From NCBI GenBank assembly GCA_024685175.1, contig JAIKWD010000021.1, forward strand, positions 7,192-71,191: a stretch of DNA of 64,000 bases, written 5' to 3'. The notes below the pieces were generated by a model. It was not told where the DNA came from and ran no database searches. It saw only the letters and a program-made list of their open reading frames with translations. The stretch comes from Bacteroidales bacterium (lineage in GTDB: Bacteria > Bacteroidota > Bacteroidia > Bacteroidales > WCHB1-69). Position 1 is the stretch's first letter. Every line of letters starts with the position of its first letter. Shown one piece after another: positions 1 to 8,724 of the stretch. A program made the position numbers and the translations under genes.

Positions 1-156
1 ATCTACAATCGCAATGCCAACTGGGTGAAGGCTATGCCCGATATCATGCGCCAGGCTCCCACCTTCTTCGCCGTCGGTGCCGCCCACCTTTGTGGCGACA
101 AGGGTGTGCTGCGGATGCTCGAGGAGGCTGGTTATAAGGTGGAAGGAGTGAAATGA
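1..156 (+). CDS. TraB/GumN family protein, C-terminal fragment (5' end outside window)
   Basis: Own translation of frame 1 gives ...QAPTFFAVGAAHLCGDKGVLRMLEEAGYKVEGVK*. The VGAAHL..G..GV...L...GY ending is typical of TraB/GumN proteins. Stop TGA at 154-156. Confidence 0.5.
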   Translation: MYNRNANWVKAMPDIMRQAPTFFAVGAAHLCGDKGVLRMLEEAGYKVEGVK

Positions 157-203
157 TTGTGAGAATGCTTGATTGCTTGATTGTTTAAGTGTGATTGTTT
201 GAG
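155..203. repeat. degenerate tandem 8-mers GATTGCTT/GATTGTTT
   Basis: gattgtgagaatgcttgattgcttgattgtttaagtgtgattgtttgag. This is the reverse complement of the AAGCAATC words at 5212-5247. Confidence 0.7.
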
Positions 204-204
204 T

Positions 205-720
205 ATGAATAAAAAAACTTGGAGAATAATAGGACGTTTTGCTCTGCTGATACTCATTCAGCTGCTGGTGCTCAACCAAGTGTACCTGGGTTCTTATGTG
301 ATGCCCATGCTCTATCTGTTGGCCATACTGATGTTGCCCACAGACACGAAACGTATACCGCTGCTGCTCATCGCTTTCGGCACAGGCCTTCTGTTGGATA
401 TTATGAATAACATGCTGGGATTCCATGCGTTGGCCTGTACGGTGGTGGCCATGATGCGCATCCTCTTCGCCGACCGTATTCTGACTCGTGGCGAACCAGT
501 GACGATTTCCATCCCCAGCATCTTTAGCGTCTCTCCCCAGTATTTTATCAGCTATCTGCTCATTCTTTTGGCCTCCTTCTATCTGGTGTTCTTCACCGTC
601 GAACTATTCGGATTCTACAGTTTCGGCAGCGTCATTATCGCCACCGTTGCCAGCACGATGGTCACAGCCCTGCTGGCAGTGCTCTATCAGTTCATTTTCC
701 TGAAGAAAGAAACCCTATGA
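205..720 (+). CDS. mreD: rod shape-determining protein MreD (polytopic membrane protein)
   Basis: ORF 181..720. The ATG at 205 gives MNKKTWRIIGRFALLILIQLLVLNQV..., about 5 hydrophobic helices and the size typical of Bacteroidota MreD. Its stop overlaps the next start (ATGA at 717-720). Confidence 0.55.
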   Translation: MNKKTWRIIGRFALLILIQLLVLNQVYLGSYVMPMLYLLAILMLPTDTKRIPLLLIAFGTGLLLDIMNNMLGFHALACTVVAMMRILFADRILTRGEPVTISIPSIFSVSPQYFISYLLILLASFYLVFFTVELFGFYSFGSVIIATVASTMVTALLAVLYQFIFLKKETL

Positions 721-3068
721 AAGTTATCAGTTGTCAGCGGTCGGTGGTCAGTTGCCTGCGCAGCATTGTCTGCGTCGGCATCATTTTCATTTTTCTTTTT
801 TCTTTTTTCAATTCCGCAACGGCCCAAACCGCCGTCGGTCATTGGCGCGACTGTCTCGACTACTCGTGGGTGAACCATGTGGCCCATGCCGGCGATTGCA
901 TCTATGCCGGCGCCCGTGATGGGGTCTTCTGCTATGATTTCGACGACAACACCCTCACACGTCTCTGCAAGGGCAACGGATTGAGCGATGTGGGCATCGC
1001 GGCGTTGGACTACGACCCAGTCACCAAATGCCTGGTGGTGGCCTACAACAACTCGAATGTCGACCTCGTTATTGACGGTCATACCTTCAACCTTTCCGAC
1101 ATCAAGCGCAGCGAGATTTCGGGCGACAAGAGCATCTACCACGTGCGTTTTGCCAACCGCCGGGCCTACCTCGCCACCGGATTCGGCGTGGTGGTGGTGA
1201 ACATTGACCGTCAGGAAATCAAAGAAACTTGGTATCTCGGAGCCGGCGGAGCCTATACCCCGGTCTATGATTTGGCTTTCCTGTCCGATAGCATCTATGC
1301 GGCCACTGGCGAAGGTCTCAAACGCCTGTCTCGCGGCGAGACGCATCCTGCCATCAGCGACCGTTGGAATATCGACCACCGCCTCGACGGGAAGAATGTC
1401 TTTGAAATGGCGACCGTCGGCAGCCATCTGCTGGCAGCCTGCCACACCTATATGCCCGACGTGGACGACATCTACCATAAAACCGACACAGGCTTTGTCA
1501 AGATATATTCCGGCGAGCTGAAGTCGCTTCATGCAGGCGGTGGCTATCTGGCCATCAGCGCCGACGGCGAAGTGAAGACCTATGATGCCGCGATGACCTA
1601 TCAGGGCGCAGTCGGTACCTACTATTGGGGTGCCCTCGTACCCAACGATGCCGTCTATGGCTCCGACGGCACACTCTGGGTGGCCCACCAGTGGGAGGGC
1701 ATCATAGGAATCCATAGGGATGGGGCGGAAGAATACCACTGCCCCGAGGGTCCTTCCTCGGCCGACAATACCTACCGTCTCGTGCCTTTCAACTACCGTA
1801 TGATGCTCTGTCCGGGAGGCCACACCTCGACCTATGCCAACGCCTATCTCACCCCCAATCTGTTCACCGCCGTGGGACGCCAGTGGAGTCTCCTCGACAA
1901 GAGCAACGGCATGCTCGACGGCATGTCCGACCTCGTCGATGTGGCCGTCAATCCCCGCGACACCCACGAGCTGGTGGCTGCCCTCTGGGGTTATGGGCTG
2001 GCTTCCATCCGCGACAACCAGGTGCAGACGTTTTATGATGCCTCCACCACTGGTGGCGCTCTGGTGCCCTACACTTCGGGCTCCTATAGCCGTCTGAACA
2101 CCGGCGCTGTGGCCTTCGACCGTCAGGGCGACCTGTGGGTGCTCAACTCCCACAGCACCCATGCCCTTGCCGTGCGCCGCACCGACGGCACCTGGGAGAA
2201 GTTCTCCACCCAAGCGATGGTGTCCACTCCCGAGGTCGACAAGCTCGTCTGCGACAGCATCACCGGCTTCAAGTGGTTCTGTGGCCGTAGCAACGTCATC
2301 TATGTCCACGACGGGAAGAACCTCATGGCCCGTGTGAACCCCAATAACGGCAGCAAACTCTCCACCGATGCCGTCACGGATCTCGTGCAGGATCAGAATG
2401 GCAACCTCTGGGTGGGCACCAATAAAGGCATCAAGGTTATCTACGACGGCTACAAGGCGTTCCAGAGTGGCGGCAACGGCGAGGTGTCGCCCGTCACCTG
2501 CAGCAATATCACCATCTCCAACGGCGAGTTTGCCGAATACCTCATGGCCTACGAGAGCATCACCGCCATCGTCGTCGACGGCGCCAACCGCAAATGGGTG
2601 GGCACCGCCAACGGCGGCCTCTACCTCATCTCCGCCAACGGCCTCGACCAGCTAGAGCACTTCACTGCGGCCAACAGCCCTCTGTTTTCCAACAAGGTGG
2701 TCTCCCTCGCCATCAACGAGCGCACCGGCGAGGTCTATGTCGGCACTGACTATGGCCTGCAGGTCTATCGCTCTACCGCTACCTACGCCGAGTCCTTCCC
2801 GCTCGACAATGTCTATGCTTTCCCCAACCCCGTGCGTCCCGACTACGACGGCCCCATCGCCATCAAGGGCTTCACCCGCAACGGCATCGTCCACATCACC
2901 GACGCCGCCGGACATACGGTCTATTCCACCACCGCCAATGGTGGTCAGGCCATCTGGAACGGCCGCACCCAGAGCGGCGAGCGCGTGGCCTCGGGAGTCT
3001 ACTATGTCTTCGCCTCCGACGCCCAAGGCAACAACCGCTCTGTCGCCAAAATCCTAATTGTGCGATAA
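717..3068 (+). CDS. porZ: PorZ-like T9SS protein: two beta-propeller (Reg_prop repeat) domains plus a C-terminal sorting domain
   Basis: 783 aa with a signal peptide ending ..NSATAQ. Repeated W-x-G-T-x-x-G-L motifs (NLWVGTNKGIKVI, RKWVGTANGGLYLI, EVYVGTDYGLQVY). C-terminal VYAFPNPVRPDYDGPIAIKGF...GVYYVFASDAQGNNRSVAKILIVR resembles the T9SS CTD. The size matches P. gingivalis PorZ (~776 aa). Confidence 0.6.
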   Translation: MKVISCQRSVVSCLRSIVCVGIIFIFLFSFFNSATAQTAVGHWRDCLDYSWVNHVAHAGDCIYAGARDGVFCYDFDDNTLTRLCKGNGLSDVGIAALDYDPVTKCLVVAYNNSNVDLVIDGHTFNLSDIKRSEISGDKSIYHVRFANRRAYLATGFGVVVVNIDRQEIKETWYLGAGGAYTPVYDLAFLSDSIYAATGEGLKRLSRGETHPAISDRWNIDHRLDGKNVFEMATVGSHLLAACHTYMPDVDDIYHKTDTGFVKIYSGELKSLHAGGGYLAISADGEVKTYDAAMTYQGAVGTYYWGALVPNDAVYGSDGTLWVAHQWEGIIGIHRDGAEEYHCPEGPSSADNTYRLVPFNYRMMLCPGGHTSTYANAYLTPNLFTAVGRQWSLLDKSNGMLDGMSDLVDVAVNPRDTHELVAALWGYGLASIRDNQVQTFYDASTTGGALVPYTSGSYSRLNTGAVAFDRQGDLWVLNSHSTHALAVRRTDGTWEKFSTQAMVSTPEVDKLVCDSITGFKWFCGRSNVIYVHDGKNLMARVNPNNGSKLSTDAVTDLVQDQNGNLWVGTNKGIKVIYDGYKAFQSGGNGEVSPVTCSNITISNGEFAEYLMAYESITAIVVDGANRKWVGTANGGLYLISANGLDQLEHFTAANSPLFSNKVVSLAINERTGEVYVGTDYGLQVYRSTATYAESFPLDNVYAFPNPVRPDYDGPIAIKGFTRNGIVHITDAAGHTVYSTTANGGQAIWNGRTQSGERVASGVYYVFASDAQGNNRSVAKILIVR

Positions 3069-3070
3069 TT

Positions 3071-3101
3071 ATACTAACACAATAACACATTAACGCATTA
3101 G
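3071..3101. repeat. ACACATTAACGCATTA-type word repeat (between porZ stop and recO)
   Basis: atactaacacaataacacattaacgcattag. The 18-nt aacacattaacgcattag is identical to 6862-6879. Confidence 0.8.
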
Positions 3102-3118
3102 TACATACTTCCGGCCTT

Positions 3119-3847
3119 GTGCTCCACACCACGCCCTACTCCGAGTCGTCGGTGGTGGCCAAGGTGTTCACGCGGCAACTGGGCGTGCGCTCCTATATTA
3201 TAAAGGGCGTTCGGGGTAGGGGAGGACGTGTGAAACAGAACCTCCTGCAACCTCTCTCCAGCCTCGATATGGTGGTGTATAATAATGAGAAAACCGACCT
3301 CAACTACATCAAGGAACTCTCCCTCCGCCAGTCATCAACGGTATCGTCCTTGCACTCCCTTGCACTCCCTTGCACTCCCTTGCACTCCCCAATAGAAAAC
3401 GCTCTCCGTTTCTTCATGACAGAGGTCCTCTACAAAGCCCTCCGCGAAGCGGAACCCATGCCCGCACTCTTCGACTATGTCGATGCAACAACTACCCACT
3501 ACCCACTACCCACTACCCACTTTCCGATAACTTTCCTCCTCACCGTCGCCCGTCACCTCGGCATCGAGCCCCTCGACAATCACTCCGTGCGTGAGCCCTA
3601 CTTCGACCTCCAGGAGGGCCGCTTCGTTTCCGCCCCCACCGAGACCACCCTCTCGCCATCCCTCTCCGAAAAACTCCACCAATATCTATTGTCCTTTCAC
3701 TCCCCTGCACTCCTCTGCACTCCCCTGCACTCCTCGCTCGACGAACGTACCGCCCTTATCAATGCCCTCCTCACCTATTATCACCTCCATCTCAGCGGCT
3801 TCTCCCATTTCCACAGCCACGAAATCCTTCACACGATCTTAAAATAA
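3119..3847 (+). CDS. recO: DNA repair protein RecO (GTG start; N-terminus apparently clipped; three in-frame tandem-repeat insertions)
   Basis: LHTTPYSESSVVAKVFTRQLGVRSYIIKGVRG...LDMVVY and ...ALRFFMTEVLYKALREAEP match conserved RecO blocks. In-frame upstream codons read H-I-N-A-L-V-H-T-S-G-L-V with no ATG. Confidence 0.8.
   Translation: MLHTTPYSESSVVAKVFTRQLGVRSYIIKGVRGRGGRVKQNLLQPLSSLDMVVYNNEKTDLNYIKELSLRQSSTVSSLHSLALPCTPLHSPIENALRFFMTEVLYKALREAEPMPALFDYVDATTTHYPLPTTHFPITFLLTVARHLGIEPLDNHSVREPYFDLQEGRFVSAPTETTLSPSLSEKLHQYLLSFHSPALLCTPLHSSLDERTALINALLTYYHLHLSGFSHFHSHEILHTILK
3348..3390. repeat. 10-nt tandem repeat TGCACTCCCT x4 inside recO
   Basis: Three perfect units plus one variant, translated SLHSLALPCTPLHSP. 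Confidence 0.9.
3491..3520. repeat. 7-nt tandem repeat ACTACCC x4 inside recO
   Basis: actacccactacccactacccactacccac, translated TTTHYPLPTTH. Confidence 0.9.
3697..3735. repeat. 10-nt tandem repeat TGCACTCC(C/T)C x4 inside recO
   Basis: tcactcccctgcactcctctgcactcccctgcactcctc, translated SFHSPALLCTPLHSS. Same word family as 3348-3390. Confidence 0.85.
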
Positions 3848-3864
3848 TTTAAAACCGAAACAAA

Positions 3865-6240
3865 ATGAAAAAACTCTCGTTTATCGCTTTAATAATTTTC
3901 AATTTTCAATTTTCAATTCTCAATTCCCAACAGGCCTACTGGGTCTTCCTTGCCGACAAGGCCGGCACCACCTTCGACCCCTACGCCTACTTCGACGCCA
4001 AAGCCATCGAGCGCTACCAGCAATGCGGTGCCGACCTCTACGACATCACCAACTACCCCGTCAGTGCCGCCTATGAGCAGGGAGTCAGCTCTTTGGCCAC
4101 TGAAGAAATCGGCGCCAGCCGCTGGATGAACGCCCTCGGCGTCATGGCCACCCCCGACCAGATTGCTGCCATCGAGGCTCTTCCCTATGTCCTTCGTGTC
4201 CAGCCTATTGCCGCCGACGGCCTCCAGCTCGCGTCAGCCACTCAGCCACTCAGCCACTCAGTCACTCAGTCACCCGAACTCCCCGGTCTCTTCGACATCG
4301 CCACCGTCGACGGCCCCATCGAGGCGCAGCTCGTCCGCATGGGCGGCCAGCATTTCCGCGACAAAGGCTTTGACGGCAAGGGTATCCGCATCGCCGTCTT
4401 CGACGGCGGTTTTCCGCAGGTCAACACCCACATGGCTTTCAAGCACCTCCGCGACAACCACCAGATTCTCAAGACCTGGAACTTCCCCAAGGACAAGGAA
4501 GATGTCTATGGCTGGGACTCCCACGGCACCATGACGCTCTCCTGCATCGCCGGCCGCATGGGCGACCGCGACCTCGGCCTCGCCACAGGCGCCGAGTTCC
4601 TCCTCGCCCGCACCGAGATCAACTCCGAGCCCTTCAAGGAAGAGGTCTGGTGGCAGATGGCCGTGGAATGGGCCGACCGCAACGGCGCCAATATCATCTC
4701 CTCCTCCCTCGGCTATGGCAAGGAGCACCACTATACCAAGGACATGGACGGCACCTCCTATGTGGCCAAAGCCGGCAATCTCGCCGCCCGTAAGGGTATG
4801 CTCGTCGTCAACAGCGCCGGCAACGAGGCCGACGACAAGCAGTGGAAGACCATCATCACCCCCGCCGACGCCGACAGCGTGCTCTGCGTGGGTGGCATCG
4901 AGAACAGCCTCACCGAGTACAACCACATCGAGTTCAGCTCCTTCGGCCCCTCTGCCGACGGCCGCCTGAAGCCCAATGTCTGCGCCTTCGGCTATGCCCG
5001 CACCGCCAATACCGGCAAGGACACCGCCTACCACTACGTCCACGGCACCTCCTTCTCCTGCCCCCTCGTGGCCGGCTTCGCCGCCTGCGCCTGGCAGGCC
5101 TCGCCCGGCAAGACCGCTATGGAGATGTTCCACCTCATCGAGCAGAGCGCCGACCTCTACCCCTATGCCGACTACTCCTTCGGCTATGGTGTCCCCCAGG
5201 CCGACTTCTTCACTCAGACAATCAAGCAATCAGGCAATCAAGCAACTCCCTCTTTCCACTTCGTCTCCGAGGCCGACACCATCCGCCTTGTTCCCACACG
5301 CCCCGTCAAGCGCTCCAACCTCTTCTACGCCTTCCGCCGTCCCGACGACCATCGCCTCACCTACTATGGGAAACTCGACATCGCCTATATGGACCAGGGC
5401 GACACCGTCACCTTCTCCAAGAATGCCCTCTTCAACCGCACCCTCATCATCCACCTCGACGGCTACACCGACAGCCTCATCCTCAGCCGCGACGAATATG
5501 TCAAATATCAGGGCTTGAGCGACTACACGTTCTGGCCCGAGGTCAGCGATGAGGCCATCACCGGTACCCTGACGGGCCGCAACGGCGACATCGTCACCTC
5601 CCAGTGGGGCAGCAACAACACCTGGCGCTGGAATGTCTACTTCGGCCTCGGCCTCCCCATCAAGATTGACGACGCCGAGCTCACCACCAACTTCTGGTCA
5701 CCCTCCACCACCTTCGGCATCCGCATCCTCCGTGCCTTCAGCAAGGCCTACTGCCTCGGTGTCAGCCTCGATTTCACCTCCTCCCACTACCGTTTCAACG
5801 ATGCTCGTGTCAACGACCTCGAAGGCACCCTCGGTATGACCCAGAACACCATCAACAATTACAAGGACATCGATACCCGCAAGGCCGTCGTCCGCGAATA
5901 TGGCCTCGAAATCTTCCAGCGTGTGCGTCTTGTTCCCGGCGGCATGATTGGCGGCAACGGCCTCCACTGGGACCTCGGCATCTACGGCAGCTTCGCCACC
6001 AACTCTTACACCTTCGAGGCCGACGTGCCCACTGCCGTCCCCTCAGAAGGGATTAACTACAACTACTCTAACCTCGACGCCCTCACCGACTACCGCTGGA
6101 ACTTCGGTGTCGTCACCCGCCTCGTCAACGACTGGTACGGCATCTATGTCCGCTACCGCCTCAACGGTCTCGGCTCCGACCCCGCCGTCGGCAAGGTCCT
6201 CCTCCCGCGCCTCACCGTCGGCCTCCTGCTCCAGCTCTGA
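3865..6240 (+). CDS. S8 family (subtilisin-like) serine peptidase with a large C-terminal domain
   Basis: Catalytic triad contexts are present: IAVFDGGF (Asp), WDSHGTMTLSCIAG (His), HGTSFSCPLVAGFAACAW (Ser). N-terminal signal peptide. The C-terminal ~300 aa are rich in alternating aromatic/Gly strands. Confidence 0.85.
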   Translation: MKKLSFIALIIFNFQFSILNSQQAYWVFLADKAGTTFDPYAYFDAKAIERYQQCGADLYDITNYPVSAAYEQGVSSLATEEIGASRWMNALGVMATPDQIAAIEALPYVLRVQPIAADGLQLASATQPLSHSVTQSPELPGLFDIATVDGPIEAQLVRMGGQHFRDKGFDGKGIRIAVFDGGFPQVNTHMAFKHLRDNHQILKTWNFPKDKEDVYGWDSHGTMTLSCIAGRMGDRDLGLATGAEFLLARTEINSEPFKEEVWWQMAVEWADRNGANIISSSLGYGKEHHYTKDMDGTSYVAKAGNLAARKGMLVVNSAGNEADDKQWKTIITPADADSVLCVGGIENSLTEYNHIEFSSFGPSADGRLKPNVCAFGYARTANTGKDTAYHYVHGTSFSCPLVAGFAACAWQASPGKTAMEMFHLIEQSADLYPYADYSFGYGVPQADFFTQTIKQSGNQATPSFHFVSEADTIRLVPTRPVKRSNLFYAFRRPDDHRLTYYGKLDIAYMDQGDTVTFSKNALFNRTLIIHLDGYTDSLILSRDEYVKYQGLSDYTFWPEVSDEAITGTLTGRNGDIVTSQWGSNNTWRWNVYFGLGLPIKIDDAELTTNFWSPSTTFGIRILRAFSKAYCLGVSLDFTSSHYRFNDARVNDLEGTLGMTQNTINNYKDIDTRKAVVREYGLEIFQRVRLVPGGMIGGNGLHWDLGIYGSFATNSYTFEADVPTAVPSEGINYNYSNLDALTDYRWNFGVVTRLVNDWYGIYVRYRLNGLGSDPAVGKVLLPRLTVGLLLQL
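3896..3927. repeat. 7-nt tandem repeat TTCAATT x4 encoding part of the S8 peptidase signal peptide
   Basis: ttttcaattttcaattttcaattctcaattcc, translated IIFNFQFSILNS. Confidence 0.85.
4235..4273. repeat. 8-nt tandem repeat CAGCCACT x3 + CAGTCACT x2 inside the S8 peptidase
   Basis: Translated ATQPLSHSVTQS. Confidence 0.9.
5212..5247. repeat. 8-nt tandem words CAATCA(A/G)G x3 inside the S8 peptidase
   Basis: actcagacaatcaagcaatcaggcaatcaagcaact, translated TQTIKQSGNQAT. Confidence 0.8.
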
Positions 6241-6267
6241 CCCCCGTTCCGGCAGTTCAGCTGTTGC

Positions 6268-6362
6268 TCTGTTCTTTCATTGTTCTTTCATTGTTCTTTC
6301 ATTGTTCTTCCATAAAAATGGTTAAACAATGGTTGAACAATGGTTAAACAATGGTAGAACAG
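6268..6362. repeat. two adjacent 11-nt tandem arrays, partly complementary to each other
   Basis: (gttctttcatt)x3-4, then (aaacaatggtt)x3. The CATTGTTC and GAACAATG cores can pair. Confidence 0.8.
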
Positions 6363-6403
6363 AGGGGTTTTGTATTTTTTTTTGCGGGGTCGGTTTTTTT
6401 TCG

Positions 6404-6411
6404 TATTTTTG
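6404..6411 (+). promoter_or_regulatory. Bacteroidota -7 promoter box TAnnTTTG (lipoprotein gene)
   Basis: TATTTTTG lies 35 nt upstream of the ATG at 6446. Confidence 0.45.
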
Positions 6412-6445
6412 CACCCGATTACAACAATAAAAAAATAAAAAGGAG

Positions 6446-6847
6446 ATGAAAACAGTTAGATTCTTGATTCCGGCACTTGCCGCTTGCTTGGCGGTTTTTG
6501 CCGCTTGCGGCGACAAGGACAACGATTATCGCGATGCGTGGGTGGGCACCTATGAGGGATATTACAATTTCCACTATTCCTCGGGGTCGGACCATCAGTT
6601 CGACACGGTATACACCGACGAGACGCTGACGGTCGCCAAGCAGGGCGACAAGGAACTGGTGGTTGGATTTATAGGCCAGAATTTCCCGGTGACCTGCACC
6701 CCTGAAGGCACGTTTGCCTCGACCACGGAGAATCCTCACAGCGAGTGGGGTGGAAGCATCAAGGGCGACAGCCTGTTCTTCACCTACTACGATGTCTCGC
6801 AAGGGCAATCTGTCACACGCCATTTTGTAGGAAGCAAAAAACACTAA
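6446..6847 (+). CDS. small lipoprotein, function unknown
   Basis: MKTVRFLIPALAACLAVFAACGDKDN has a lipobox-like signal peptide with Cys. TAnnTTTG box upstream at 6404-6411. Confidence 0.6.
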   Translation: MKTVRFLIPALAACLAVFAACGDKDNDYRDAWVGTYEGYYNFHYSSGSDHQFDTVYTDETLTVAKQGDKELVVGFIGQNFPVTCTPEGTFASTTENPHSEWGGSIKGDSLFFTYYDVSQGQSVTRHFVGSKKH

Positions 6848-6879
6848 CACATTAACGCATTAACACATTAACGCATTAG
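6846..6879. repeat. 16-nt tandem repeat AACACATTAACGCATT x2
   Basis: Between the lipoprotein stop and the hutU fragment start. Same word as 3084-3101. Confidence 0.85.
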
Positions 6880-6884
6880 ATAAT

Positions 6885-7481
6885 ATGACACTCGAAGAAT
6901 TCCAGAATGAATTGCGCCTCGGTATCCCCGATCCGCTGCCCGAACCCCAACCTTATGACCCCACAGTGAACCACGCTCCCAAGCGCAAGGATATCCTGAC
7001 GCCTGCCGAGAAGAAGCTGGCCATCCGCAACGCCCTGCGCTACTTCCCCGCCAAGCACCACAAGATGCTGGCCAAGGAGTTCGCCGAGGAGCTGCAGAAG
7101 TACGGCCGCATCTATATGTACCGTCTGCGCCCGACCTACAAGATGTACGCCCGCCCCATCGACGAGTATCCCGCCAAGTGCCGTCAGGCTGCCGCCATCA
7201 TGCTGATGATTCAGAACAACCTCGACCCCGCTGTGGCGCAGCATCCGCACGAGCTCATCACCTACGGCGGCAACGGCGCCGTGTTCCAGAACTGGGCCCA
7301 GTATCGCCTGGTGATGAAATACCTCAGCGAGATGACCGACGAGCAGACGCTGGTGATGTACAGCGGCCACCCCATGGGACTCTATCCCAGCCACAAGGAC
7401 GCGCCGCGCGTGGTGGTGACCAACGGCATGATGATTCCGAACTACTCGAAGCCCGACGACTGGGAGCGCTACAACGCCCTG
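6885..7481 (+). pseudogene. hutU: urocanate hydratase (hutU) 5' fragment, ~199 codons, truncated at the junction with an inverted second copy
   Basis: MTLEEFQNELRLGIPDPLPEPQPYDPTVNHAPKRKDILT...ITYGGNGAVFQNWAQYRLVMKYL...SGHPMGLYPSHKDAPRVVVTNGMMIPNYSKPDDWERYNAL is the HutU N-terminal region. Full-length HutU is about three times longer. After 7481 the frame reads the antisense of the other copy. Confidence 0.8.
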
Positions 7482-8096
7482 GCCGTACTGGCTCACGCCG
7501 AGGGCGTTCATCCGCTCCCAATCGTCCGGCTTGGAGTAGTTGGGGATGACCATACCGTTGGTGACCACCACGCGCGGGGCGTCCTTGTGGGACGGAAACA
7601 GCCCAAGCGGATGGCCGGAGTACATCACGAGCGTCTGCTCGTCGGTCATCTCCGACAGGTATTTCATCACCAAGCGGTACTGGGCCCAGTTCTGGAACAC
7701 GGCGCCGTTGCCACCGTAGGTGATCAACTCGTGCGGATGTTGGGCCACAGCGGGGTCCAGGTTGTTCTGGATCATTAGCATAATGGCGGCCGCTTGTCTG
7801 CACTTGGCGGGATACGCGTCAATGGGACGGGCGTACATCTCGTAGTCGGGACGATAGCGGTACATATAGATGCGGCCGTAGTCGTGCAACTCCTTCACAA
7901 ACTCGGGAGCGAGCTGGGCGTGCAACGACGGGTCGAAATAGCGAAGCGCGTTGCGCAAGGCAAGTTGCTTCTCTTTTTTTGTTAATATGTCTTTGCGCTT
8001 GGGCGCGTGGTTGACGGTCGGGTCGTAGGGCTTTGCCTGCGGCAAGGTGCTGGGAATGCCTCTCTTAAGGTCTTCTTGAAATTCTTGCAGTGTCAT
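7479..8096 (-). pseudogene. hutU: urocanate hydratase (hutU) 5' fragment, ~206 codons, convergent with and abutting the + strand copy
   Basis: From the ATG at 8096 (complement): MTLQEFQEDLKRGIPSTLPQAKPYDPTVNHAPKRKDILT...NYSKPDDWERMNALGVSQYGQ. HutU similarity then stops. It has its own TAnnTTTG box (complement of 8134-8141). Confidence 0.8.
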
Positions 8097-8214: not shown

Positions 8215-8724
8215 ATGGATACCATTCTCATCATATTAGCCTTCTTCTCAGCCCTTGTCGGCATCGTGGGTGCCGTCGTGCCGGGACTCCCTGGTCCACC
8301 ATTTGCCTGGTTGGCAGTGCTTTTGCAGAGTTTTACCCGCTTCGACAAAGACCTTACCCCGACCTTCTTGATCGTTACCGCCATCTTGGCTGTGATTATT
8401 ACTGTGTTGGACTACGTCATCCCTGCTTGGGGAACCAAACGATATGGAGGCACGCCTAGCGGTACGAAGGGTAGCACCATAGGACTGCTGGTCTCTGTTT
8501 TTTTGTTGCCGTTTTTAGGCATCACTATTGGCCCTTTTGGAATTATAGGCATCTTGCTGGGACCTTTTGCGGGCGCCTATATCGGAGAACGAATGCACCA
8601 GACTGATTCTAATCAGGCCCTGCGTTCCGCCTTCGGCAGTTTCATGGGCTTTCTGGCCGGCACCTTCATTAAACTCGTCTTCGCTATTGTCATTGTCGTG
8701 ATTATGATAAAAGGGATGTTTTGA
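8215..8724 (+). CDS. DUF456 family membrane protein
   Basis: 169 aa, four hydrophobic helices. IVGAVVPGLPGPPFAWLAVLL and GTKRYGGTPSGTKGSTIG are typical DUF456 motifs. Confidence 0.65.
   Translation: MDTILIILAFFSALVGIVGAVVPGLPGPPFAWLAVLLQSFTRFDKDLTPTFLIVTAILAVIITVLDYVIPAWGTKRYGGTPSGTKGSTIGLLVSVFLLPFLGITIGPFGIIGILLGPFAGAYIGERMHQTDSNQALRSAFGSFMGFLAGTFIKLVFAIVIVVIMIKGMF

Follow-up and report, generated by a model that had tools for sequence, protein, structure and literature searches.

The window analysed here, a stretch of 64,000 nucleotides, belongs to a 75,339-nt contig (C10) of a 38-contig, 2.1-Mb metagenome-assembled genome (MAG; G000), and its position 1 corresponds to C10:7192. It contains two 5' portions of the urocanate hydratase gene hutU that meet tail to tail and thereby form a long imperfect palindrome. 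We call these portions armA and armB, and the lineages to which they can be assigned A, typified by the rumen genome RUG12171, and B, the lineage of the MAG itself. The features needed to follow the analysis are these:

1-7482, no strand: foreign segment (the window part of C10:1-14673), assigned to a RUG12171-like species of another genus
6446-6847, plus strand: lipoprotein gene of 133 aa, belonging to a 90% cluster of 31 members; no other complete gene separates it from hutU in the armA lineage
6885-7482, plus strand: armA, hutU codons 1-199 plus 1 nt, assigned to the RUG12171-like lineage
7480-7482, no strand: junction, the trinucleotide TGG common to both parents in a three-way alignment of C10, L048 and L039
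7480-8096, minus strand: armB, hutU codons 1-206, assigned to the MAG's own lineage
8215-8724, plus strand: DUF456 gene, which in the native arrangement lies next to the MAG's hutU, in divergent orientation

As the original prediction had stated, positions 6885-7481 of the plus strand encode HutU residues 1-199, positions 8096-7479 of the minus strand encode residues 1-206, and neither arm has the rest of the enzyme. Urocanase_N is the sole Pfam domain in each (E values of 1.8e-50 and 1.2e-53, respectively), and Pfam gives nothing past it in either window ORF, so that the Urocanase and Urocanase_C domains of the three-domain HutU architecture are absent from both. The full Urocanase_N, Urocanase and Urocanase_C architecture is present in the hutU genes of the parental lineages. 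In having native starts and upstream regions both arms are like bona fide N-terminal parts of HutU (EC 4.2.1.49); unlike the complete enzyme they are without the central NAD-binding and C-terminal domains, and whole genes are found only in the parents and, in part, on another contig of the MAG, C20.

The geometry of the locus is unusual. An inverted-repeat search returned arms at 7077-7486 and 7495-7904 that are 410 nt long, 83% complementary and separated by 8 nt, and a BLAST comparison of the region with its own reverse strand extended the match to 1088 nt at 79% identity. The palindrome is far beyond chance, since it is the single structure of this kind in the 2.1-Mb assembly. Over 199 codons, armA and armB have 101 identical codons, 65 with synonymous and 33 with non-synonymous differences, and a nucleotide identity of 76%. 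The many amino-acid differences claimed for the first 100 or so codons are borne out (29 of the 33 non-synonymous codons lie in codons 1-100), and a recount of the 40-codon stretch said to hold 13 differences, all synonymous, was exact. The arms are clearly two distinct hutU genes that were under purifying selection, as had been proposed. A perfect fold-back of one gene, already excluded in the original prediction, is ruled out by the 76-83% identity of the arms together with their differing flanks. Nor do the arms share an origin at one locus of one genome, given the 33 amino-acid differences and flanks from two genera. Run-on ORFs of 297 and 422 aa do exist in the window, as had been described.

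The source of the left part of the contig was traced via 90%-identity protein clusters of the lipoprotein and of an S8 peptidase, which include many rumen contigs; a DNA search of the same piece over 400 genomes of the order returned weak matches only, at 74% identity or less. The genes of the foreign segment within the window are those for TraB, PorZ, RecO, the S8 peptidase and the small lipoprotein plus the 5' part of hutU, and gmk and mreC lie further left on C10, outside the window. Four independent ENA contigs (L047-L050) are colinear with C10:5524-14677 and match it at 97.7% identity, and C10:1762-14075 is 98% identical to and colinear with contig 5 of RUG12171. The latter is a rumen MAG and the GTDB species representative of the A lineage; it lies outside the genus of the present MAG, as it is not among the 55 genomes of that genus. 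In L048 and L049, for which gene calls are available, the order is MreC-TraB-171aa-PorZ-RecO-S8-lipoprotein, with the lipoprotein gene directly 5' of an intact 667-aa hutU that is followed by SIMPL, QueC, QueD, QueE and QueF. RUG12171 has one hutU, also of 667 aa, whose N-terminus is identical to armA over the 60 residues compared.

Gene content and composition set the left piece apart from the remainder of the MAG. Among 40 genus members sampled, 39 have exactly one gmk and one gave no match; two copies occur only in this MAG. Its copy on C3 is of the genus type (65-78% identity), and the copy on the left of C10 is 50% identical to that on C3, the same value as is obtained with the RUG12171 gmk, which itself lies inside the stretch of contig 5 that matches the left piece at 98%. 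Proteins of the left piece have homologues elsewhere in the MAG that are just 28-58% identical, including a syntenic three-gene block on C35. The GC content of the piece is 0.548 versus a median of 0.492, and its tetranucleotide distance to the MAG mean falls at the 99th percentile of 131 pieces; this distance and the duplicated, foreign-type gmk mark a discontinuity at the breakpoint. What follows hutU in the A lineage is missing from the MAG, and the left 14.7 kb of C10 is the sole DNA of the RUG12171-like species found in the bin.

A further irregularity lies inside the left piece. RUG12171 has 15.7 kb between the counterparts of C10:1-1653, which encodes an M16 peptidase, and of C10:1762 onward (contig 5, 105173 versus 120867). 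The interval C10:1653-1762 is 5.4 kb left of the window start, and the Logan contigs L108 and L109 also diverge left of 1763. From these alignments, this interval would mark a strain-specific indel of 15.7 kb or else another misjoin within the foreign piece.

On the right side, two long ENA contigs from independent assemblies, L039 (ERZ27274636) and L040 (ERZ27274642), were reached through the DUF456 protein beside armB. Both carry an intact 681-aa hutU next to genes for DUF456, a 200-aa and a 478-aa protein, an aldose epimerase and a pseudouridine synthase, in the gene order of the window, and C10:14671-21892 matches them at 99% identity (99.0% to L039). ArmB has 95.7% amino-acid identity to the hutU product of a member of the MAG's genus (G007). 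The original prediction had called for a search of the rest of the genome for the missing 3' part, and tblastn located it: C20 opens within hutU, at residue 167, and codes for the other ~500 residues. L039:1-5384 and C20:1-5378 are 99.2% identical, rising to 99.4% from C20:121 onward, so that the single 93-kb contig L039 bridges the right part of C10 and C20 with the gene uninterrupted. The upstream flanks of hutU are not conserved across the genus, and synteny there could not tell which flank is native; downstream synteny pointed to C20, where gene order over ~4.3 kb past hutU agrees with that around hutU in relatives of the genus. Nearly all relatives that have hutU carry one intact copy of 667-725 aa, the exception being G008, with two copies and 7% contamination.

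These comparisons show that the window parts 1-7482 and 7480-64000 come from two organisms of different genera, each with an intact hutU in independent assemblies, that C20 is the missing continuation of the MAG's own hutU, present in the same assembly, and they likewise place the exact breakpoint. The possibility that the true sequence runs on into full-length hutU, raised in the original prediction, was confirmed on both sides in close relatives and, on the B side, within the MAG itself through C20.

C20 has features of its own. Its first ~100-120 nt (hutU nt 499-620) correspond to a third hutU allele that is 91% identical to L039 and L040, and from nt 101 or 121 onward it is 99.3-99.4% identical to them, the value being 99.3% for the 300 nt that come next. 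C20 is thus itself a mosaic as judged from these alignments, with the allele switch at the same gene position (~nt 598-620) as the palindrome junction, and the sample contained at least three hutU alleles, namely A, B and that at the C20 tip. L039 and L040, for their part, are 99% identical upstream of hutU and over its first ~900 nt; identity falls to 89.6% when the whole hutU part on C20 (C20:1-1477) is taken, and to 71% in the 3.5 kb that follow, a profile that points to a probable natural recombination boundary inside or just after hutU.

Comparison of C10 with each parental lineage placed the breakpoint at 7482|7483, which is C10:14673. In the three-way alignment, C10 tracks L048 through this position, ending ...TACAACGCCCTGG, whereas L048 runs on as GCGTGACGCAGTACGGCCAGATGACC and, beyond the armA end (GGCGTGACGCAGTACGGCCAGATGACC...), leads into full hutU. 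C10 tracks L039 from C10:14671 (window 7480) rightward. The 3-nt overlap of the original prediction is therefore correct in length and its position is refined from 7479-7481 to the TGG at 7480-7482; the shared stretch would be 4 nt, CTGG, had armB the CAG allele of C20. In gene coordinates armA ends at nt 598 and armB at nt 620, and the junction sits within a 13-nt natural palindrome, ACGCCC-T-GGGCGT, of the A-lineage hutU. The longest inverted exact match between the A and B genes is 12 nt and is located away from the junction, where 3-4 nt are shared; a de Bruijn hairpin via a shared inverted k-mer is ruled out on this basis. A restriction-site or proximity-ligation junction (GGCC/HaeIII) is also unsupported, as inspection by eye found the armA parent to be without GGCC at the break.

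The region of hutU in which the join occurs is fragile in assembly: public contigs often end or carry deletions within residues 130-210. In the 90% cluster of armA, 13 of the 14 other members listed are fragments of 56-181 aa, several with frameshifted tails, and the Logan contigs of the B lineage end within hutU. The longest exact matches between A and B (35, 26, 23 and 23 nt) all fall in hutU nt 217-470, just upstream of the junction. The 14th listed cluster member, of 195 aa, is shortened by an internal deletion in L113 (ENA ERZ914847 scaffold_26634). There, at L113:153-2102, the hutU of another rumen species has lost 51 nt at nt 587-637, over the junction region; the deletion creates a TAG and splits hutU into 195 + 446 aa, and may be an assembly shortcut or a real lesion. 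A second deletion, of ~86 nt (equivalent to C20 nt 380-466), is seen in an A-lineage hutU at L047:8518-10444 (ENA ERZ1060811 scaffold_462), and the gene caller therefore gives a 303-aa antisense ORF and a 336-aa C-terminal fragment. As for the assembly itself, the MAG has two pairs of contig ends with an overlap of exactly 141 nt, a hallmark of de Bruijn assembly at k=141, and ENA contigs of related samples are named k141_, in the MEGAHIT style.

Because the flanks belong to two genera, each hutU is intact in its own lineage and the MAG's own gene continues on C20, the palindrome is in all likelihood an inter-genome chimeric contig, that is, a misassembly and not a chromosomal arrangement. Of the three explanations offered originally, it is thus the chimeric inverted join, by assembly or amplification, that stands; a real rearrangement between paralogues or alleles and a functional convergent transcription are not supported. 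The junction itself is almost certainly a feature of no genome.

How the join was made is inferred as follows. The sample contained at least three hutU alleles, from the RUG12171-like species, from the MAG's species, and the third at the C20 tip, and hutU codons ~130-210 are so conserved that rumen metagenome assembly graphs tangle or break there. The end of the A path, consisting of the upstream flank and hutU nt 1-598, would have been joined head-on to the end of the B path, consisting of its flank and nt 1-620, leaving hutU from nt 621 onward and the genes that follow it, with which B truly continues, stranded on C20. Since only 3-4 nt are shared at the junction, genuine reads could not have led a de Bruijn graph to connect the paths. 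The join was most likely seeded by one or a few strand-switch chimeric fragments from library preparation, arising at the short natural palindrome, a link that a multi-k assembler of the MEGAHIT type may then have retained after the true paths were pruned in the tangled region. Such a link could be kept because assemblers of this type carry small-k contigs forward. Binning would then have brought 14.7 kb of species A into the MAG, as this DNA was physically attached to 60 kb of B.

Some observations sit less comfortably with a chimeric contig. A physical chimeric molecule or a non-graph step must be assumed, as a graph assembler is unable to make the join from genuine reads; the B path is unlinked to its true continuation though the strain should be well covered, which is somewhat unexpected if few chimeric reads were involved; and the inverted orientation with near-symmetric breakpoints (nt 598 versus 620) is unusual, inter-genome misjoins normally being co-oriented. 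The first two of these are also the points that speak for a join formed in vivo, in which RUG12171-like DNA of another genus, at least 14.7 kb in length, recently entered a strain of the MAG's species. It would have been joined in inverted orientation into hutU at the short palindrome, through template switching or an illegitimate recombination mediated by microhomology, and this would have destroyed the hutU of that strain. The failure of a k-mer path requires a physical molecule, and B is unconnected to its continuation in the assembly. In addition, the TGG/CTGG microhomology and the 21-nt offset are typical of template-switch joins, both species inhabit the rumen, and strain-level hutU mosaicism occurs in the MAG's species, as in L039 versus L040. 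If true, an inter-genus transfer would have been captured just as an illegitimate fold-back join, guided by homology, was taking place. We nevertheless consider it improbable. In the same sample, C20 has intact B-type hutU sequence across the junction position, and an insertion would not duplicate hutU nt 499-620. The foreign piece reaches the contig end with no return into B DNA seen, it duplicates the housekeeping genes gmk, mreC, recO and porZ at 28-58% identity, and it is 98% identical to free-living RUG12171-type genomes. Finally, searches for the junction in the 54 other genomes of the genus and in JGI metagenome contigs (the latter queried with an exact 27-mer and with a wobble-degenerate pattern) found it nowhere else.

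A second alternative is very unlikely, namely that one genome had two convergent hutU paralogues and lost their 3' parts in a central deletion or through palindrome processing between them. A deletion between tail-to-tail paralogues would give exactly such a geometry, and purifying selection on both arms is in keeping with it; the flanks, however, come from species of different genera, and hutU is single and intact in both parental lineages, with unrelated genes downstream. Moreover, nearly all hutU-bearing genomes of the genus are single-copy, apart from the contaminated two-copy G008, and no third-party genome contains a convergent hutU pair. The least credible option of all is that the locus is a functional element, with convergent overlapping transcription or with the 297- and 422-aa run-on ORFs as real proteins: both arms keep native upstream regions and start codons and the run-on frames are open, but the run-on parts are the antisense of a GC-rich gene with no Pfam match besides Urocanase_N, a single contig is the only recorded source of the 297-aa ORF while ORFs of 406 and 422 aa are in no collection, and the arrangement is conserved nowhere among the genomes and metagenomes searched.

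With the chimeric contig as the preferred reading, the locus can be set beside known assembly and library artefacts. Inter-genome translocation and inversion misassemblies form a class that is defined by MetaQUAST and targeted by metaMIC, and sequence conserved across organisms is known to cause inter-genome misassemblies of metagenomes (PMC9661791). As in the chimeras of that class, each side of C10 aligns to a different genome, both references run unbroken through the breakpoint, the break falls in sequence conserved among co-occurring organisms, and splitting the contig would cut bin contamination. Unlike them, the C10 join is inverted, tail to tail, with 3-4 nt shared and no co-oriented switch in a shared k-mer; a chimeric fragment or a non-graph step is therefore needed besides the conserved stretch. 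Inverted chimeras also arise in multiple-displacement amplification. Library-preparation chimeras at inverted repeats and palindromes have been documented and described by the PDSM model (PMC10908179). The C10 join is like these strand-switch or fold-back chimeric reads in its inverted junction, its microhomology of a few nucleotides, its offset of ~20 nt and the short palindrome ACGCCC-T-GGGCGT. It is unlike them in its partners, which are homologues of two genera with 76-83% identity, whereas strand-switch chimeras normally join the same or a near-identical molecule.

The main value of the finding lies in curation of the MAG, which is a species representative. C10 should be split at window 7482 (C10:14673), and the left 14.7 kb removed or re-binned as RUG12171-like contamination. 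Placing the right part of C10 beside C20 then gives one intact hutU, and the MAG's organism is accordingly best regarded, at the level of the assembled sequence, as having a whole hutU made up of armB and C20. The 297-aa ORF annotated as "urocanate hydratase" is spurious, and the truncated ORFs and the 422-aa run-on should not be read as genes either. Analyses that treat window 1-7482 as DNA of the MAG's organism, including any that pool repeats from both sides of 7482, mix two genomes. The locus also illustrates how breaks, deletions and chimeras in rumen metagenome assemblies stem from a conserved stretch in a housekeeping gene, and how independent assemblies, compared without reads, can expose chimeric joins.

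Several minor observations concern the surroundings of hutU. The absence of hutH and hutI from the window, noted earlier, holds, and the genes are sited on C38/C35 and C21 instead: two histidine/aromatic ammonia-lyase (PF00221) genes lie at C38:78066-79439 and C35:68675-70087, and hutI at C21:155307-156452. The Hut genes are dispersed in this MAG and form no operon, and their absence near hutU is normal here. A frameshift suspected in the aldose-epimerase gene right of the junction was rejected, as the gene is intact and the apparent break came from ATG-only ORF calling. Upstream of armA, at window 6846-6879, short tandem "word" repeats (ACATTAACGCATTA...) form part of the RUG12171-like piece, and related arrays occur many times in RUG12171, for example at C3:110235-110484 of that genome.
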